Sequence record: ON210137.1
Direction: 5' to 3' (one strand)
From: Escherichia phage EC150
DNA: 64,000 nucleotides
Both the position numbers and the translations under genes were made by a program. This document shows positions 1,929 through 61,891 of the stretch, one piece after another. The notes below the pieces were generated by a model, which saw only the letters and a list, made by a program, of their open reading frames with translations, was not told the DNA's origin and ran no database searches. The stretch's first letter is position 1; the number at the start of each line of letters is the position of its first letter.

Positions 1929-2177
1929 TGAATAAACGAACACTGTTTACGTGTTTTGAAGAATGGAATGTGTGCAATGGGTCGCTTTATGCGGCCTTTT
2001 GTCGTTTGGGTCGTGTTTTGCGATGGAATAATTATGATGAGGTGTTTTATTTATTGATTGTGCGGAAATATTTAGAAATATATTTCATAGGTCGTGTCTA
2101 TTGGTCCGTGGTGTTTGTTAGATTATATCTATGGATTGAAATTTTAGTGTCGTGAAACGTGGTGTTTGAACACATTT

Positions 2178-2540
2178 GATACGCCTAAAATACGGCTAAA
2201 AATTAAGCGTATCATGGCTGCAGGCCGCGTCGTTCCTGGATTCTTCTTTTTAAAATTGGTACACCCTTACGTCATGATACGTCATGGTTTTTTATCCGTA
2301 TCAGTGTACAGCCCTTGCCGCGCCTGGCTTGTACATTAATCTTACGGATGATACGGATAAAACTGGGCATCGTTATATATAAAACTCCAAAAATAAATAA
2401 ACTCCATTTTAAAAACATTTATATTAATTTTTTTCATATCCTCATACTTATGTTAATTTATATATTTAACGTATCATCCGTAAGATATAAGTAAAAACAA
2501 AGACTTGCGGCAATACGGATGATACGTCATGATACGCTTC
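2178..2540. repeat. Repeat locus A: inverted GATACGG/CCGTATC-type repeats (CTTACGGATGATACGGATAAAA at 2341-2362; inverse CGTATCATCCGTAAG at 2470-2484) flanking a ~105 bp AT-rich core
   Basis: Read directly; further copies at 2178-2196, 2208-2218, 2269-2304, 2511-2537. Confidence 0.6.
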
Positions 2541-2763
2541 AACCAGCCAGCAGCGGCTAAGTCATTGATTTGCATAACAAGCGGCGAAAGGGATGGATTT
2601 CTTTTATACGTATCAAACAGTACACCACGCACCACGGTCCGCTATTCATTCAGTACTATGATTTGTGTACGTTTACAGCCAATTTGAACATCAATCTGCA
2701 CTTGAATATAATGTTCATTCATTGTATAATTCACACTATTAATTTGCACTATGGGATTTGCAC

Positions 2764-3238
2764 TATGAGTCAAGATTATGTAGCAATGCCTGAAGACTTT
2801 GAAGACCCGCGATTTGCAGAGCATAATCAGGCATTATTCGATGAGTTCATTGACCTTGTTATTCAGGGCCATGACATGCGCGCAGCTTTTGCACTAGTAT
2901 TTGGCATGGAGGTTGCGACCGATAACTACACTGGCCAGCGAGTCCTCTGCACGCAACGCAATCCGTACTACAAGATGCGCTACAAAAAGCGTATGGAAGA
3001 GATGCCATTGAAGGAATTGTGGAGCGTAAAGAGTTCCATCCACAATTTAGTGAAGCTTGTGCGTGATCCAGAAGTCGCGGCGTCAGCCAAGCTTAATGCC
3101 ATTCGTGAACTGAATATCATCTACGGCATCACGATGATTGATGAGAATGGCAATAGTAAAATGGGCCGTTCCATGGACGATTTCTACAAGGATTTTGGAG
3201 AGGCAGCCAAAGAGGGTGAGCAATTCTCCCGCCACTAG
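2764..3238 (+). CDS. hypothetical protein (158 aa)
   Basis: In-frame ATG 2764 (MSQDYVAMPEDFED...) inside track ORF 2570..3238; upstream extension starts at TTG and is low-complexity; start codon overlapped by an ATTTGCACTAT copy. Confidence 0.5.
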
Positions 3239-5820: not shown

Positions 5821-5945
5821 AAGGCGCAAAACTTTCCCTTCGTTCCGAACTAAAACGAGAAATGTGCCGACCCTTCGCCCGAAAATAGTACGTATGCGAA
5901 ATTACATGCATCTCGAATAATCCCTCCCGATATTATCCTACACGC

Positions 5946-6008
5946 AATCATTCGCTTTCGAATCATTATGCTTCATATTGTTATGCGTCGAATCATTCGC
6001 TTTCGAAT
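5946..6008. repeat. 18-bp perfect direct repeat pair AATCATTCGCTTTCGAAT (5946-5963, 5991-6008)
   Basis: Read directly; non-coding region. Confidence 0.55.
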
Positions 6009-6096
6009 TGTAACGCTGGAAACTGTAACGGCGATTGATTATTGCGTTCGTGTGGTTTTTATGGCATGGGTCTTTTGGTGCGTTTTGGTACTTGAT

Positions 6097-17968: not shown

Positions 17969-18149
17969 AGAGGAAGTTATGCAAAAGATTATGCAGTCAC
18001 GTTACGTTAAAGTGCGAAATATTAATTGCAACTCTTTGCTTTCTTGGAAATGGGCTGTTTACGACTCGATGCTGATTGGCGTTTTAGTTGCTGGAGTGCT
18101 TTTTAATATTCACTGAATCGCCTGGCAATGGATTGCCGCAGGATTTCAC

Positions 18150-18425
18150 GCGTATAATGACGTATCATCCGTATCAAGTAAGTAGTTGTTTTCAAAAGAA
18201 TCTTACGGATGATACGGATGATACGCGTTGCCGCGATACTTTATAGGAATTCAAATAAATTAATTTAAAATTATATATCTAATTTAATTTTATTTTTTTA
18301 TAAACTCTTATATATGAAAAGTATCCGTATCATCCGTATCATCCGTAGCACACCAGTGATAGCGCGGCTTATACACCGATACGGATAAAAATACGCCTCA
18401 TTTTATCCGTATCATCCGTATCACA
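18150..18425. repeat. Repeat locus B: inverted arrays of GGATGATACG / CGTATCATCC units (CTTACGGATGATACGGATGATACG at 18202-18225; GTATCCGTATCATCCGTATCATCCGTA at 18321-18347) flanking a ~95 bp AT-rich core
   Basis: Read directly; shares the 17-mer CTTACGGATGATACGGA and TTTTATCCGTATCA with locus A at 2.3 kb. Confidence 0.6.
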
Positions 18426-18540
18426 CTAATTAAGGCGCGCGGCTATATCGGTTGTTATACATATTCAAACCATAATTATTGTTTGCCTAAGTTTTTTTCA
18501 TTAGATATAATACACAATACTTATTTGAGGGTGGATGCGA

Positions 18541-19953
18541 ATGCAAACGGCACGCGAAATTGACAAAAATGGATTCTTGACGATTGTGGGTTGTCCCATT
18601 TCGTCATTTGGCATTTTTGATTATTCTGCAGGTCAGGTTGGACTTGATGGTGATCCGAATCGCATCGTAAAAGTTTATCGCCCAGAGTCAGCGGTGAAAG
18701 ACCCCGAAGCGATAGATTCATTCAAAAATATCCCTTTCATCGACAATCACGAAATGCTTTCTGGATTCGAAGGTGATGAGGATAACACAGCACCCGAAGA
18801 GTATGGCGTTGATGGCGTTCTAACTGGCAATGTTTATTATGACAAGCCATGGATGCGCGGCGACCTTAAAGTTTTTAGCCGTCGTCTGAAGAAAGCCATC
18901 GATTCTGGAAAGGTTGACTTGTCTTTGGGCTATGACTGTGAATTCATCATACAGTCTGGAGAGTTTGACGGGCAGCCGTATGAAGTGGTACAGACAACTC
19001 TTCGCGGCAACCACATTGCTCTCGTGGACGTTGGTCGAGTACCAGGTGCACGGGTGCTGGATGGTCGTTGCTTTGACCATCTTTGTTTGACGACTGTAAC
19101 ACCATCCAACGAGGATTTAGACATGCCAAAACCGTTAAAAGGTAAAGCGCGTGATAATGCTGTTGAACAGCTGAAGTCGCTGATCCCTGCGCTCGAACAA
19201 TTTCTGAATGAAGAGAGCACCGAAGCTGCTCATCAGGACGAAGTTGAAGTGAAAGCAGAAGAGAAGGATTCAACCGAAGAACGTGAAGAAGTGATGGTTG
19301 ATCCAGAAGTCAAAGCAGAAGCTGAAGAGACTCCAGAAGGTGAAGAGAAGTTTGAAGTTGAAACTGAATCTCACGCTGGCGGCGAGCTTCCGCAACTGAT
19401 CAGCCAAATCGAAGCACTTATTGCAAAACTGAAAGGTGGCGCGGTAGGTGATGAAGAAGAAGTTGAAGCCGAAGTCAAAGACGAAGAAGTTGAAGTCAAG
19501 GCTGAAGATGTATCACCTTGCGACAAAGCTGAAGATGTGGTTAGCGGCCTGCAAAACAGCAACGTAAAGGGGGCTTCGGTCGAAAAAGATGACAAACCGA
19601 CAAAAGCGGCGAAAGCGTCGCCAGGTCCAGCAAAAGGGGAACACTCAATGGCATCTGATTCAGCAGTTGCTGCTTTCTACGCTGATTCTGCTCGTAAGAA
19701 TAGCCTCTACCAGCGCCTGTCTAAAGTTGTTGGTGCCTTTGATCATGCAACTATGGACTCCAAGTCCGTAGCGAAATATGGCGCTAAAAAGTTAGGCTTG
19801 AAGTGCGTTGATGGTGCTGAGTTTGACGTGGTGGATAATTATCTGCGCGGCGTTGAACACGGTCAAAAACAGCGTGTAGTCGCAAAACAAAAGGCTGCTG
19901 CGGATTCTGCAGCAACTGACGAAGCGTTTGAAGCTTGGTTGAAAGGGGAATAA
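18541..19953 (+). CDS. prohead protease / scaffolding fusion protein (putative)
   Basis: Globular N-terminal domain followed by long acidic Glu-rich coiled-coil region; immediately upstream of capsid genes; GAGGGTGG Shine-Dalgarno. Confidence 0.55.
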   Translation: MQTAREIDKNGFLTIVGCPISSFGIFDYSAGQVGLDGDPNRIVKVYRPESAVKDPEAIDSFKNIPFIDNHEMLSGFEGDEDNTAPEEYGVDGVLTGNVYYDKPWMRGDLKVFSRRLKKAIDSGKVDLSLGYDCEFIIQSGEFDGQPYEVVQTTLRGNHIALVDVGRVPGARVLDGRCFDHLCLTTVTPSNEDLDMPKPLKGKARDNAVEQLKSLIPALEQFLNEESTEAAHQDEVEVKAEEKDSTEEREEVMVDPEVKAEAEETPEGEEKFEVETESHAGGELPQLISQIEALIAKLKGGAVGDEEEVEAEVKDEEVEVKAEDVSPCDKAEDVVSGLQNSNVKGASVEKDDKPTKAAKASPGPAKGEHSMASDSAVAAFYADSARKNSLYQRLSKVVGAFDHATMDSKSVAKYGAKKLGLKCVDGAEFDVVDNYLRGVEHGQKQRVVAKQKAAADSAATDEAFEAWLKGE

Positions 19954-57828: not shown

Positions 57829-58911
57829 ATGGCTAGTTTAAGAGAAGAAGCAAAAATAATCGAAGAGTTTTTGACAGAACTCCAAAGAGGCATTCCAGAA
57901 GATGAACGCGTCATGACCGTGTTTGCGCCTGAAGCAACGGTGCAGACCGACGAGCGCGGCAAAAAGATTAACAGCAGCTTCTGGCCTAAGCCTTGGAAGC
58001 TTGGCAAGCCGCTGATGCAACATCAGAACGGTTACGCCTGCATAAGTTCAATGCGTAAGTCTCCCAACCCAAAGACAGGCGAGATGCGATACTGGCGCAC
58101 GGAATCGGCTTTCGGTCATGGCATGGCGATGATGGTCGACGACATCGGTCACGGTAAAGGGTCCAAAGGCGATTTAGATTTAGAGTTCTTTTTCGAGCGT
58201 CTGAAGCCAACCGTCATTGTTGAGACTTCACCGAACAACCACCAGCTGTGGTATTTCTTTAAAGACCCGATTGACCATCTTATCCAGTTCAAAGCATTCC
58301 TTGGGTCTTTCGTAAACATGGTACTCAAGAAGGGCGGCGACAACACGATTAAAGACGTGACGCGCGTGGGCCGTGTTCCTGGTTGCATCAACAACAAGCG
58401 TGTGACTCACGACGGCCCTTACAAATATGTCGATGAGAACGGCGACCCGTTCCGCTGCCGACTTGTCCATGCAGACTATTCTTTGCGATACACAATCGAA
58501 GAGATTTGCCAAGCCTTCGGTTTCCACGTCGTTATGCCGCAAAAGCGTGAAATTCAAATTGACGTTGACGAATACAAATATGATGCTGTTTGGTATAAAA
58601 TAGCCCAGCAAATCCTTTCGCGCAATAAGATGGGTGAAGGGTCCGATGGCGATGTTGTTGAAAACATGTCAGGTAAATGCCGCATCATCTGCCCTTGGGG
58701 TGAAGAGCACACCAACGGCGACCCATATGGCGCTTACTTTCGCGGCCCAATCCCTGGCGCTGAACATGAATTCGTTTTCGGTTGCGCTCACGACTGTCAC
58801 CGGAAAGGTGAAGGTAAGAAAGGCTGGACAGCTTTTGTTGAAGCAGTAGTCATGCCTTATATTGAGAATCAACTTGATATGATAAATCGTCGCGCAGGTG
58901 GCATAAAATAG
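57829..58911 (+). CDS. archaeo-eukaryotic primase (AEP)-type primase-polymerase with C-terminal Cys/His zinc-binding region (putative)
   Basis: AEP-like motifs: DxD-type MAMMVDDIGHG, His motif NNHQLWYFF, RVGRVPGCINNK; C-terminal CPWGEEH...CAHDCH. Confidence 0.5.
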   Translation: MASLREEAKIIEEFLTELQRGIPEDERVMTVFAPEATVQTDERGKKINSSFWPKPWKLGKPLMQHQNGYACISSMRKSPNPKTGEMRYWRTESAFGHGMAMMVDDIGHGKGSKGDLDLEFFFERLKPTVIVETSPNNHQLWYFFKDPIDHLIQFKAFLGSFVNMVLKKGGDNTIKDVTRVGRVPGCINNKRVTHDGPYKYVDENGDPFRCRLVHADYSLRYTIEEICQAFGFHVVMPQKREIQIDVDEYKYDAVWYKIAQQILSRNKMGEGSDGDVVENMSGKCRIICPWGEEHTNGDPYGAYFRGPIPGAEHEFVFGCAHDCHRKGEGKKGWTAFVEAVVMPYIENQLDMINRRAGGIK

Positions 58912-60220: not shown

Positions 60221-61891
60221 ATGTCAATTGAACATGACAATCTTCCAGAGGATACAGGTGATGAATTTGGTGCAATCTTTGACGAAATTCAAGATGCTGG
60301 TGTTTCAGAAGAAATGCAAGCGGCAGAGCAGCAAGGCACCAGAGCTAAAATCAGCCTCCAGCACAAGGCTGTTGAGAAAGATGCAGAGCGCATGGAATGC
60401 TACGGTGAAGAAGACTTGGTTGAAAGGGCACGTTTGCTCGCCTCACTTCAGGTAATCAAGTTCCCTCACTACAAACCGACGAAAGATGATTTTGTTCTTC
60501 AGGCGGACCGGACGAGTGACATGAACCGTTATGCGGTTTTCGACGCGTTGTTTGATAAGGGAAGTGGCGTTGTTCCATTCCCTCACAAAGATACTTTTCG
60601 TGGGCGCTTAGTCGACCATCGCGGCGAAACATTCACCGACCGGACGTTGGAAGTCACAGAGATAGTTGCCGCTGTCGACGCAGCAGGGCTGTCCAACCCA
60701 AACTCACGTCAGGTCGCTCAATCCTATAAGGAATGGGCCATGCGTTATCAGCGCGACGACCTGATGGACTTCTTCTACAAGAAGCTGCCTGAATGGGACG
60801 GTACTGCGCGCATTGAGAAATACCTTATCGAGCTATTCCGACCGTTCGATACAGAGTTAAACCGACAAATCGGTGTGTATTTTTGGCTATCGCTCTATAA
60901 CCGCCTGACCAACCCTGGCTGTCAAGCGCCAATCTCCATCGCGCTCATCGGCGGCCAGAACGCAGGGAAAAGTTATTTTAGCAAGCTGCTTTGCGAAGCT
61001 ATTATGAACGACCGCCACGCAACACCGATTCCGTTGAACTTGGCCGCGCAGAACTTCAACCCGTTCTTGCGAGCTATTACGGGTCGCTCAATTATCGCGA
61101 ACGTTGGCGAGATGACAGGCTTTAAAAAAGCTGACATCGAAAACATGAAAGCATTCCTGACTAAGACGGAAGATGACCTGGACTTCAAATTTGAAGACAC
61201 GCAGGTTAAACCACGCCAGTGGATTGCTATCATGGACGGCAACGAATACGCAGGTATGCAGCGTGACGACACGGGCAACCGTCGTGTGTACCCTATATTT
61301 GTTGGCCAACTCGCTGACAAGGACGGGCAACCGAACTGGTCCAAAGACTTCCAAGCTGACCTTTCCACTTTGAAAGAAGACGTTTGGCAGCTGATGGCTG
61401 AGTGCGCCGCATGGATGGAGAAGCACGGCGAAGCAGGTTACAATGCCTTTGTTGGTGAAACATCTCGCATGCTTACTGAGTTCAGCAAGAACGAAATGGA
61501 ACGTGCTCGCGGCGTTATCCGTGATGAGATGGTCGACAACGACCTTGTTGAAGTAGTCATTACCGCGCCTTATGACCGACATCACAGCGGACGCTGGCAC
61601 ATCACCAGTGGTGCAATTGCTATGGGATTCAGAGCTAAGTGCGGCAAGTCGCCTTTCTCACGTACCCTTGCGCCGCACATGTCGAAGCTTGGATTTGAGC
61701 CTGCGACCTATCGCAACCAGCGTGGTTACTTTACGCCGCTGATTAAGAATGAAGCAGGGGAATACATTTCTGACTTGATGACTATCTTAGCGTATCTTAT
61801 CCGCGACGAGTCTGACCCTGAAGATATTGAATTCTTGAAGAAGGTTATTGAGCGCAAACGTTCTTTAGGAAGAGATAAGGATGAATTCTGA
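60221..61891 (+). CDS. VirE-family / primase-associated P-loop NTPase (putative replicative helicase)
   Basis: Walker A IGGQNAGKSYFSKLL; Walker B-like WIAIMDGNEY; AGGAGG Shine-Dalgarno; adjacent to AEP primase. Confidence 0.55.
   Translation: MSIEHDNLPEDTGDEFGAIFDEIQDAGVSEEMQAAEQQGTRAKISLQHKAVEKDAERMECYGEEDLVERARLLASLQVIKFPHYKPTKDDFVLQADRTSDMNRYAVFDALFDKGSGVVPFPHKDTFRGRLVDHRGETFTDRTLEVTEIVAAVDAAGLSNPNSRQVAQSYKEWAMRYQRDDLMDFFYKKLPEWDGTARIEKYLIELFRPFDTELNRQIGVYFWLSLYNRLTNPGCQAPISIALIGGQNAGKSYFSKLLCEAIMNDRHATPIPLNLAAQNFNPFLRAITGRSIIANVGEMTGFKKADIENMKAFLTKTEDDLDFKFEDTQVKPRQWIAIMDGNEYAGMQRDDTGNRRVYPIFVGQLADKDGQPNWSKDFQADLSTLKEDVWQLMAECAAWMEKHGEAGYNAFVGETSRMLTEFSKNEMERARGVIRDEMVDNDLVEVVITAPYDRHHSGRWHITSGAIAMGFRAKCGKSPFSRTLAPHMSKLGFEPATYRNQRGYFTPLIKNEAGEYISDLMTILAYLIRDESDPEDIEFLKKVIERKRSLGRDKDEF

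Follow-up and report, generated by a model that had tools for sequence, protein, structure and literature searches.

Locus B occupies the non-coding gap between a conserved 45-aa ORF and the head maturation protease/scaffold gene of a phage genome, of which a stretch of 64,000 nucleotides (the window) was analysed as a whole. The window belongs to a Wifcevirus, a PB1-like myovirus of E. coli. The surroundings of locus B are 93.9 to 99.4% identical to 28 Wifcevirus records (E. coli and Shigella myoviruses that include WFH, Ro157lw, ECML-117, and FEC19), and Ro157lw shares 98.2% identity with the window over a 20-kb stretch. Wifceviruses are distantly related to Pbunavirus, the PB1-like phages of Pseudomonas, and their genomes have terminal repeats about 3.7 kb long (PMC6563267; BASEL paper; PMC6753283). 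The 45-aa ORF is annotated in all related records, and because it takes up part of what an earlier note on this DNA had given as a 570-bp gap before the protease gene, the truly non-coding gap is 418 bp (18117-18534).

A paralogous element, locus A, lies approximately 300 bp upstream of the gene for the small terminase subunit (terS), the product of which matches PDB 7uxe ("Small terminase") with a phmmer E value of 1.3e-32 and is also annotated as such in Mansfield. The primase and the VapE-like helicase are encoded by separate genes, the latter being called "DNA primase" or "helicase" in related records, and the annotation of the related WFH record includes no phage RNA polymerase. The coordinates of these genes and of the parts of locus B are collected in Table 1.

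Table 1. Loci A and B, the parts of locus B, and the genes and promoter discussed in the text (window coordinates)
Feature	Position	Strand	Remarks
Locus A, paralogue of B	2176..2616		core about 2365-2468 (82% A+T); dyad centre between 2412 and 2413
Small terminase subunit gene (terS)	2765..3238	+	homologue of PDB 7uxe small terminase
Conserved 45-aa ORF	17979..18116	+	immediately 5' of locus B; one record predicts a membrane protein
Outer-left triplet of 9-bp units	18150..18177 (units at 18150, 18160, 18169)	+	GCGTATAAT, ACGTATCAT, CCGTATCAA; oriented towards core
Inner left arm	18202..18227 (units at 18209, 18218)	-	two tandem units (18209-18226), CTTA before them
AT-rich core	18228..18320		93 bp, 85% A+T; within palindrome; dyad centre between 18275 and 18276
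Inner right arm	18321..18351 (units at 18325, 18334)	+	two perfect units and one degenerate unit
Right outer units	18376..18424 (units at 18376, strand -; 18407 and 18416, strand +)		- unit 18376-18384; short inverted repeat 18378-18413; + dimer 18407-18424
Sigma-70-like promoter (predicted)	18483..18511	+	TTGCCT-17-TATAAT, 10/12 match; outside repeat element
Head maturation protease/scaffold gene (DUF2213)	18535..19953	+	downstream of locus B
RepB-type DNA primase, separate gene	57829..58911	+	domain search
VapE-like helicase	60221..61891	+	structural homologue (by model) of SaPI1 Rep1 self-loading initiator helicase; candidate iteron-binding protein

Repeats and palindrome of locus B

Locus B (18150-18424) contains ten copies of a 9-bp unit (CCGTATCAT), counted with at most 2 mismatches and a required CGTAT core, which run in opposite orientations on either side of an AT-rich core. 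The density of such units is 22.9 per kb in loci A and B together, compared with 0.44 per kb elsewhere in the window. A 17-mer spanning two units, CCGTATCATCCGTATCA, has 10 matches with at most 3 mismatches in the 64 kb, where 0.12 would be expected, and all 10 fall either in locus A (2340-2527) or in locus B (18160-18423). The repeat strings quoted in the earlier note were found where it had placed them, but of the three tandem units that it counted in the right arm, two are perfect copies and the third is degenerate (CCGTAGCAC). The word TTATCCGTA matches the DnaA box at only 7 of 9 positions. The arrangement of GCCGC on the left and GCGGC on the right is consistent in every locus inspected; no enrichment is claimed for this pentamer because it is common (2 to 2.6 per kb).

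The A+T content reaches 91% over 18240-18320, and that of the whole core likewise stands well above the 54% of the window. An inverted repeat around an AT-rich core had been described in the earlier note, and although both parts are real, the description understates the symmetry, which extends through the core as an imperfect palindrome of about 145 bp. When the segment 18204-18347 is compared with its reverse complement, the two match along 160 aligned nt (E 3e-13), and at the best dyad centre, 47 of 80 positions are complementary (scan mean 21.6, sd 4.6). As a single strand, locus B folds as one long hairpin (DNA z = -7.8; RNA z = -6.3). When locus B was searched against the whole window, it matched itself and locus A only, which confirms that it is a second copy of the locus A architecture and that locus A is the sole other copy in the 64 kb. 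The likeness of the two had been put down to architecture; it goes further, as A and B are homologous along approximately 300 bp, the core included. Beyond the window, a 23-mer of the iteron was found in IMG/VR in Wifcevirus contigs only, and a 20-mer gave 43 matches in 185,579 bacterial and archaeal genomes, all in unrelated taxa and none in an enterobacterial prophage or satellite. Both searches were aimed at finding a protein that travels with the iteron, and for that, they are uninformative.

Conservation of the pair and position of the genome end

The two loci are found as a pair at two fixed places, one 5' of terS and the other 5' of the head protease gene, in Wifcevirus, Kylevirus, Myosmarvirus, Pbunavirus, and several lineages known from metagenomes. 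In a set of 17 IMG/VR contigs that contain both the terS and protease genes, the regions upstream of the two genes were significantly similar in 13, with E values of 1e-8 to 1e-28 and in the same orientation. These 13 contigs cover the four genera and three metagenomic lineages; for XcP1 and two further metagenomic lineages among the 17 contigs, no A/B similarity was found. Pantoea phage PA1 (Kylevirus; TerS 43% identical) has both loci, with B located between a small ORF and the head protease gene, and its repeat word, TTTAAACCGTTATAACC, has 5 matches where 0.08 would be expected and none in the remaining 40 kb. The A and B loci of Pbunavirus contain GGTAATTTGG-type words; R12 and JG024 served as references for this genus, and PS44 was dropped as its ends do not join and it has been flagged as misassembled in another paper. 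In at least seven lineages, the repeat word is specific to the lineage, is common to A and B, and flips its orientation across the core. A lineage-specific word present at both loci means that one factor per lineage reads both, and to judge from these words, A and B are almost certainly recognised by the same sequence-specific factor. The suggestion of one DNA-binding factor for the two loci, made in the earlier note, is thus supported by their paralogy and by the words that they have in common.

Selection on locus B was assessed in six Wifcevirus genomes from both clades, with the adjacent upstream coding DNA (9.7% variable columns) as the reference. There are zero variable columns in 18242-18366 (p about 3e-6), and from the core to the protease ATG (18240-18534), only 7 of 295 columns vary (p about 6e-7). 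The aligned sequences indicate that the locus B core is under purifying selection. The left flank and left arm of locus B are variable among the six genomes, and Bas101 has exactly one 9-bp unit fewer in the inner left arm, which supports the 9-bp unit as the functional module. The same asymmetry is seen in locus A, the right half of which is nearly invariant. Two versions of its left half occur, one of them B-like, and their distribution does not track the clades. In the Pbunavirus A locus, the left 100 nt or so are divergent in about half of the records. Parts of the core (TATAGG... and TTTTTCTA...) recur across genera, with the TATAGG block situated at the left core edge in several of the inspected cores, though not in every one.

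Locus A also contains the left physical genome end, for which record starts serve as a proxy. By homology, this end would lie between 2405 and 2406 in the window, and with the right boundary of the terminal repeat placed near 6075, the repeat would measure 3,670 bp. The WFH record (71,283 bp) has the repeat at both ends and begins with ATTTTGAATTAATTT..., which in the complete right-end copy sits centrally within the AT-rich core of that locus. Ro157lw begins with the same nucleotides, and the start nucleotide inside the A core is common to WFH, Ro157lw, and the PhageTerm-oriented Mansfield genome, for which PhageTerm gave a single direct terminal repeat (DTR) (PMC6753283). Relative to the dyad centre of locus A, the end is displaced to the left by 5 nt in WFH, by 7 nt in the window, and by 6 nt in a Kylevirus record that has a terminal repeat. 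Records of Kylevirus and Myosmarvirus also begin in A cores, the Myosmarvirus start being an AT-rich stretch upstream of terS. In JG024, a putative pac position has been given as 59,376 (PMC10913387), which is the nucleotide directly before GATTGCCC..., the start sequence of many Pbunavirus records; within the Pbunavirus A core, this sequence is situated on the left.

Possible functions of the two loci

The genes of two candidates for the protein that reads the repeats flank locus A, terS on the right and, in most relatives, the helicase gene on the left. The helicase contains a Pfam VapE-like domain and matches SaPI1 Rep1 (PDB 7pds) with a phmmer E value of 4e-11. A Foldseek search with its AlphaFold model (pLDDT 86.5) placed all six 7pds chains on top (E 2e-16, about 480 aligned columns, target 451 residues), followed by NrS-1, SaPI5 PriRep, and the poxvirus D5/E5 helicases. 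To judge from this model, the phage helicase and the SaPI1 Rep1 initiator are structural homologues. Residues from about 436 to 504 form a helix-strand-helix-helix-hairpin pattern in the model, and this secondary structure is read as winged-helix-like. The Reps of SaPIs serve as both initiator and helicase, with a C-terminal winged-helix domain for iteron recognition, and the SaPI ori lies directly 3' of rep and contains 6 to 12 iterons and an AT-rich centre, with at least 2 iterons per side in opposite directions, such that two hexamers probably load, one on each side (PMC9371898). By analogy, this description appears to fit loci A and B in every point. There are 10 units in locus B, with inner pairs at 18209/18218 (- strand) and 18325/18334 (+ strand) and outer sets on both sides, as well as an AT-rich centre, and the genome encodes a helicase of the Rep type, the winged-helix part of which is a reading of secondary structure. 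In 18 loci, from Pbunavirus, Myosmarvirus, and at least 6 metagenomic lineages, no more than 1.5 kb separates the 3' end of the helicase orthologue from the downstream terS, and locus A directly follows the helicase gene in those lineages. Wifcevirus differs, with about 8 kb of small ORFs inserted between the helicase gene and locus A. Two Kyleviruses that have different iterons have TerS proteins only 60% identical, and as both TerS and the helicase have diverged between them, this pair cannot discriminate which of the two proteins reads the iterons.

The explanation that we tentatively prefer, at somewhat less than even confidence, is that locus B is a second replication origin of the SaPI Rep type and that locus A represents the ancestral origin and the start of packaging as well. 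The C-terminal winged-helix domain of the Rep1-like helicase would bind the 9-bp units, two hexamers would assemble, one per side of the core, and the AT-rich palindromic centre of 81 to 93 bp would melt, after which the separate RepB-type primase and a DnaE-type polymerase could start synthesis. Locus A would then be the ancestral origin beside the helicase gene, doubling as packaging start, and locus B a second origin within the morphogenesis module, with the promoter of the capsid operon being separate and downstream of the locus B element. By analogy with SaPI, we infer that the helicase may bind the 9-bp units, and likewise that B may fire as an origin and escape cleavage. Several lines of evidence support an origin: the anatomy of locus B matches the published SaPI ori, the phage encodes an initiator of the matching type, A directly follows the helicase gene in relatives as the SaPI ori follows rep, the A/B paralogy is deeply conserved while the iteron is lineage-specific, locus B is under purifying selection, and Bas101 differs by one whole unit.

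Other observations argue against an origin. The only property of this family of elements with an experimental anchor is packaging, and the genome end in the A core fits a terminase site at least as naturally. Locus B is not beside the helicase gene, being about 22 kb from it going round the genome. The unwinding region of a classical origin needs AT-richness only, whereas the sequence of the B core is invariant in the genus, and this invariance, together with the recurrence of core parts across genera, hints at an extra sequence-specific function. The conserved half of each locus is the gene-proximal side, an asymmetry that a symmetric origin does not predict, and three lineages, XcP1 among them, are without A/B similarity. 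An analysis of GC skew in Pbunavirus placed putative origins in the region of the replication genes and not at A or B (PMC12390725), but this objection is weak because skew in phages largely follows transcription.

It is also possible, although we consider it unlikely, that end formation is coupled to the firing of origin A and that B is kept as an uncut second origin before the capsid genes. The genome end would lie at the A dyad centre, as DTR boundary in Wifcevirus and Kylevirus and as pac cut in Pbunavirus, because end formation is tied to origin firing. For example, rightward synthesis from the origin at A might duplicate the 3.7-kb terminal repeat, and the terminase might then resolve the branch or the melted centre.

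Alternatively, B may be a second binding site for TerS, its units being bound by the HTH of the small-terminase ring, with A as the true pac or terminus. This is the strongest competitor of the origin, if itself somewhat unlikely. Locus B would normally be uncut or only rarely cut and would have an accessory role, synapsing with A or concentrating terminase. T4 gp16 reportedly binds homologous sequences in genes 16 and 19. Most of what favours a terminase site concerns locus A, which adjoins terS and in which WFH, Ro157lw, and Mansfield start at the identical nucleotide, many Pbunavirus records start at the putative pac of JG024, and records of Kylevirus and Myosmarvirus start as well. The cut lies 5 to 7 nt from the dyad centre in two genera, as is expected of a symmetric cleavage complex, the repeats flanking the cleavage region resemble P1 pac and SPP1 pacL/pacC/pacR, and the conserved half of A and of B is the side that would be packaged first. 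At locus B, one Pbunavirus record, E215, begins inside the core, 13 nt away from where the A cut would fall by homology. However, this is the only start in a B core among 297 Pbunavirus records, with about 0.1 estimated to be expected by chance, and no genome end inside B was found among the 28 Wifcevirus records, as judged by record starts; in the literature on E215 and E217, no statement on their termini was found. One IMG/VR contig ends at the left arm of B, which is probably an assembly break at the shared repeat. Mansfield has one DTR only by PhageTerm, a cut at B would be wasteful for a DTR phage, and B, at 15.3 kb downstream of terS, is not adjacent to it. We know of almost no precedent for two pac-type sites in one genome. 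A terminase site also leaves unexplained that A is directly 3' of the Rep-type helicase gene in most lineages; the position of A is at the same time the boundary of the replication and packaging modules.

A role in transcription is less probable again, and we regard it as quite unlikely to account for the pair. Here a factor of the phage or the host at the A and B units would act as at an operator, enhancer, or regulated promoter to time the expression of terS and of the protease, scaffold, and capsid genes, and transcription might start inside the AT-rich core. Both loci do lie 150 to 300 bp upstream of a late-type gene and a strong sigma-70-like promoter, and the near-invariance from the core to the ATG is what a promoter with its 5' UTR would be expected to show. 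A weak promoter-like match, the best in the core (9/12), is present at 18314-18342, and the LMA2 record has a predicted promoter annotated inside the homologous core. The Pbunavirus B core begins with TATAGCCTGGG, which contains the CTGGG word of a phage-specific promoter class described in phage 14-1 (PMC10914365). The best promoter, however, is outside the element: the match at 18483-18511 is likely the proximal promoter of the protease/scaffold/capsid operon, to judge from its sequence, and a proximal promoter is likewise predicted in the LMA2 record, a short way 5' of the protease gene. In this region, promoter-like matches are no commoner than in shuffles (3 compared with 3.8), a palindrome of about 145 bp with 10 iterons is far beyond the needs of an operator, and terL and the portal gene are without such an element. 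The genome end at the A dyad centre and the position downstream of the helicase gene would also be left unexplained. Locus A is not simply a promoter region because it holds the genome end, adjoins terS, and follows the Rep-type helicase gene in most relatives. The proposal in the earlier note that locus B may be the regulated promoter of the capsid operon is not supported. Nevertheless, the invariance from core to ATG and the TATAGG block leave room for a function linked to transcription, and this need not conflict with the role of an origin. The origins of T7 and T4 consist of a promoter plus AT-rich DNA.

An element acting at the RNA level, in which the hairpin of a read-through transcript serves as an RNase III site, 3'-end stabiliser, or terminator, is very unlikely. 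For the RNA of 18195-18540, the folding energy is -93.4 kcal/mol (z = -6.3), the 145-nt palindrome making a single long stem, and A and B both lie between co-oriented transcription units, but no U-tract follows the stem, and the symmetry would be expected anyway of a dyad site for protein binding. The outer units in both orientations and the variation in unit number by steps of 9 bp suggest recognition of DNA by protein, and the end in A is a property of DNA. No Rfam family matched at the gathering threshold anywhere in the window. Least probable is a non-functional duplication or a MITE-like mobile element with terminal inverted repeats that landed twice; inverted terminal repeats, an AT-rich interior, two copies per genome, and the mosaic left half of locus A are set against just two copies, each at a fixed syntenic place, across at least seven lineages with completely diverged repeats, strong conservation of locus B relative to neighbouring coding DNA, long iteron words that are otherwise limited to Wifcevirus contigs and to unrelated occurrences by chance or in coding sequence, and no target-site duplication seen. 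With no copies beyond A and B, synteny and conservation effectively refute a mobile element.

No description of these paired elements was found in the literature or in sequence records, where existing annotations amount at most to predicted promoters, a 24-bp repeat_region, or spurious ORFs across the elements, and the JG024 pac position was proposed without mention of the surrounding structure (PMC10913387). An iteron and AT-rich origin for a Rep-type helicase is of a kind already known. What is new is the setting in large virulent myoviruses, a second copy fixed in front of the capsid genes, a palindrome that is both long and conserved, and the overlap with the genome end. PB1-like phages rank among those applied most often in Pseudomonas therapy, and their synthetic rebuilding is now under way, yet their origins, pac sites, and genome ends are undefined or disputed (PMC12390725, PMC10913387). 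The conserved pair offers concrete candidate cis-acting sites for replication and packaging and, for genome engineers, two stretches of approximately 300 bp to leave intact. If locus B is a second origin, the SaPI design of a self-loading helicase plus inverted iterons would reach large virulent myoviruses, with a possible physical coupling of origin function and end formation. Such an origin-coupled mechanism for long direct terminal repeats, if true, might explain the contradictory reports on Pbunavirus termini.

Comparison with known systems

The closest counterpart of loci A and B is the ori of SaPIs and PICIs (SaPI1 Rep1, 7pds; PMC9371898), in which two sets of short iterons flank an AT-rich centre, at least two per side and oppositely directed. 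The phage helicase has the same fold, including the C-terminal region, and the primase is encoded by a separate gene in both systems, while in most relatives locus A lies directly 3' of the helicase gene. The host, however, is a virulent myovirus of about 68 kb and not a satellite, the phage units are 9 bp rather than the 5 to 6 bp of SaPI iterons, and the whole phage centre is palindromic and conserved in sequence. The phage has two copies, with B 15.9 kb from A and not beside the helicase gene, and one of these (A) holds the end of the packaged genome.

Locus B may be compared with SPP1 oriR or P4 crr. In SPP1 (oriL/oriR) and P4 (ori/crr), one initiator acts on the same repeats at two distant loci beside AT-rich DNA, with one site near the initiator gene and the other elsewhere, in the late region in the case of SPP1 oriR. 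The initiator families differ from that of the phage, G38P in SPP1 and, in P4, the alpha protein, which is a primase-helicase fusion. These origin sites are, to our knowledge, not long palindromes, and we know of no coincidence with a packaging end.

In P1 pac, SPP1 pacL-pacC-pacR, and lambda cosN/cosB, protein-binding words flank the cleavage region, and as at locus A, there is partial twofold symmetry around the cut, a genome end at the centre, and terS nearby. Unlike these single-copy sites, locus B is not adjacent to terS and has no Wifcevirus end documented in it, and the central regions of the known sites are not known to be AT-rich palindromes of about 90 bp.

The origins of T7 are promoters for the phage RNA polymerase plus AT-rich DNA, unlike the iteron palindromes described here, and the sites in T4 genes 16 and 19, unlike locus B, are inside genes. 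As in T4, where gp16 is the terminase subunit reported to bind two homologous internal sites, a pair of related sequences is present in the genome. The primary origin of T7 is at about 15% of its genome, and this DTR phage resembles the Wifceviruses in having an origin-like element near the terminal repeat (phiOL/phiOR) and another about 15 to 22% in. In both T7 and T4, end formation is coupled to replication or transcription signals, much as the genome end at locus A may be coupled to the firing of an origin.

The direct terminal repeat

The window contains the entire direct terminal repeat of the phage, which is approximately 3,670 bp long, in agreement with the 3,673 bp of Mansfield and the ~3.7 kb of WFH, both relatives in the genus Wifcevirus. 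Direct repeats that bear no relation to the 9-bp unit are located just inside its right boundary, and these might mark the right-end cut. The positions of these and other features are collected in the table.

Features in the window and in related phage records (L-numbers denote stretches of the related records)
Feature	Position	Remark
Terminal repeat, left boundary	window, between 2405 and 2406	within locus A core
Terminal repeat, right boundary	window ~6075	
Direct repeats	window 5940-6035	TCGAATCATTCGCTTTCGAA x2; TGTAACG...CTGTAACGG
GCCGC, locus A left	window 2224, 2317	
GCGGC, locus A right	window 2507, 2553, 2581	
GCCGC, locus B left	window 18135, 18230	
GCGGC, locus B right	window 18364, 18439	
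TATAGG/TATAGC block	window 18228-18260; L008 20285-20310; L013/L014 junction	
'Phage protein' ORF	L012 514-1095	R12 gp40
'Phage protein' ORF	L025 56-637	JG024 gp77

Variation and record ends at loci A and B

The left half of locus A, the locus upstream of terS, is present as two sequence types (window 2150-2420 versus 37380-37580 of L002, together with L021, L022, and L023, all from related records). These types do not track the two Wifcevirus clades, and in the type carried by WFH and Bas101 the left arm is nearly identical to that of locus B, the paralogue upstream of the head protease gene. This pattern suggests that A and B have exchanged sequence by recombination or gene conversion, or that such exchange took place at the genome end. 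In Pbunavirus, the left ~100 nt of locus A is similarly divergent in about half of the records. Variation within locus B includes Bas101, which is missing exactly one 9-bp unit of the inner left arm (homologous to 18204-18212 in the window).

The record of Pseudomonas phage E215 (NC_042080.1; its two ends are L013/L014) is opened inside the Pbunavirus locus B core, which none of the other records among the 297 from Pbunavirus is. The counterpart in locus B of the locus A pac/record start lies 13 nt away from this opening; the E215 paper makes no statement on termini. The metagenomic Wifcevirus contig IMGVR_UViG_3300045988_152943 terminates exactly at the locus B left arm (homologous to ~18201 in the window), probably through an assembly break that arose from the 20-30 bp of sequence common to loci A and B.

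Gene annotations

Pbunavirus records carry an annotated 'phage protein' ORF of ~190 aa across locus A that, given the repeat and palindrome structure of the locus, is probably not a real gene. Related records label the gene at 60221-61891 in the window 'DNA primase'; its product is a Rep1-like (VapE/D5-type) helicase in which no primase domain was detected, and the actual primase is encoded by a separate RepB-type gene at 57829-58911.

Short motifs flanking the cores

At all A and B loci inspected, from four genera (both window loci plus those of PA1, Pbunavirus, and Hera), GCCGC is found only to the left of the core and GCGGC only to the right. The pattern of orientation is consistent; because the pentamer is common genome-wide, it need not be enriched at these loci. 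In several genera, the AT-rich core carries a TATAGG/TATAGC block at its left edge; the Pbunavirus locus B version of this block reads TATAGCCTGGG. This version includes the word CTGGG, which is reported to occur in a class of non-sigma-70 promoters of phage 14-1 (PMC10914365).
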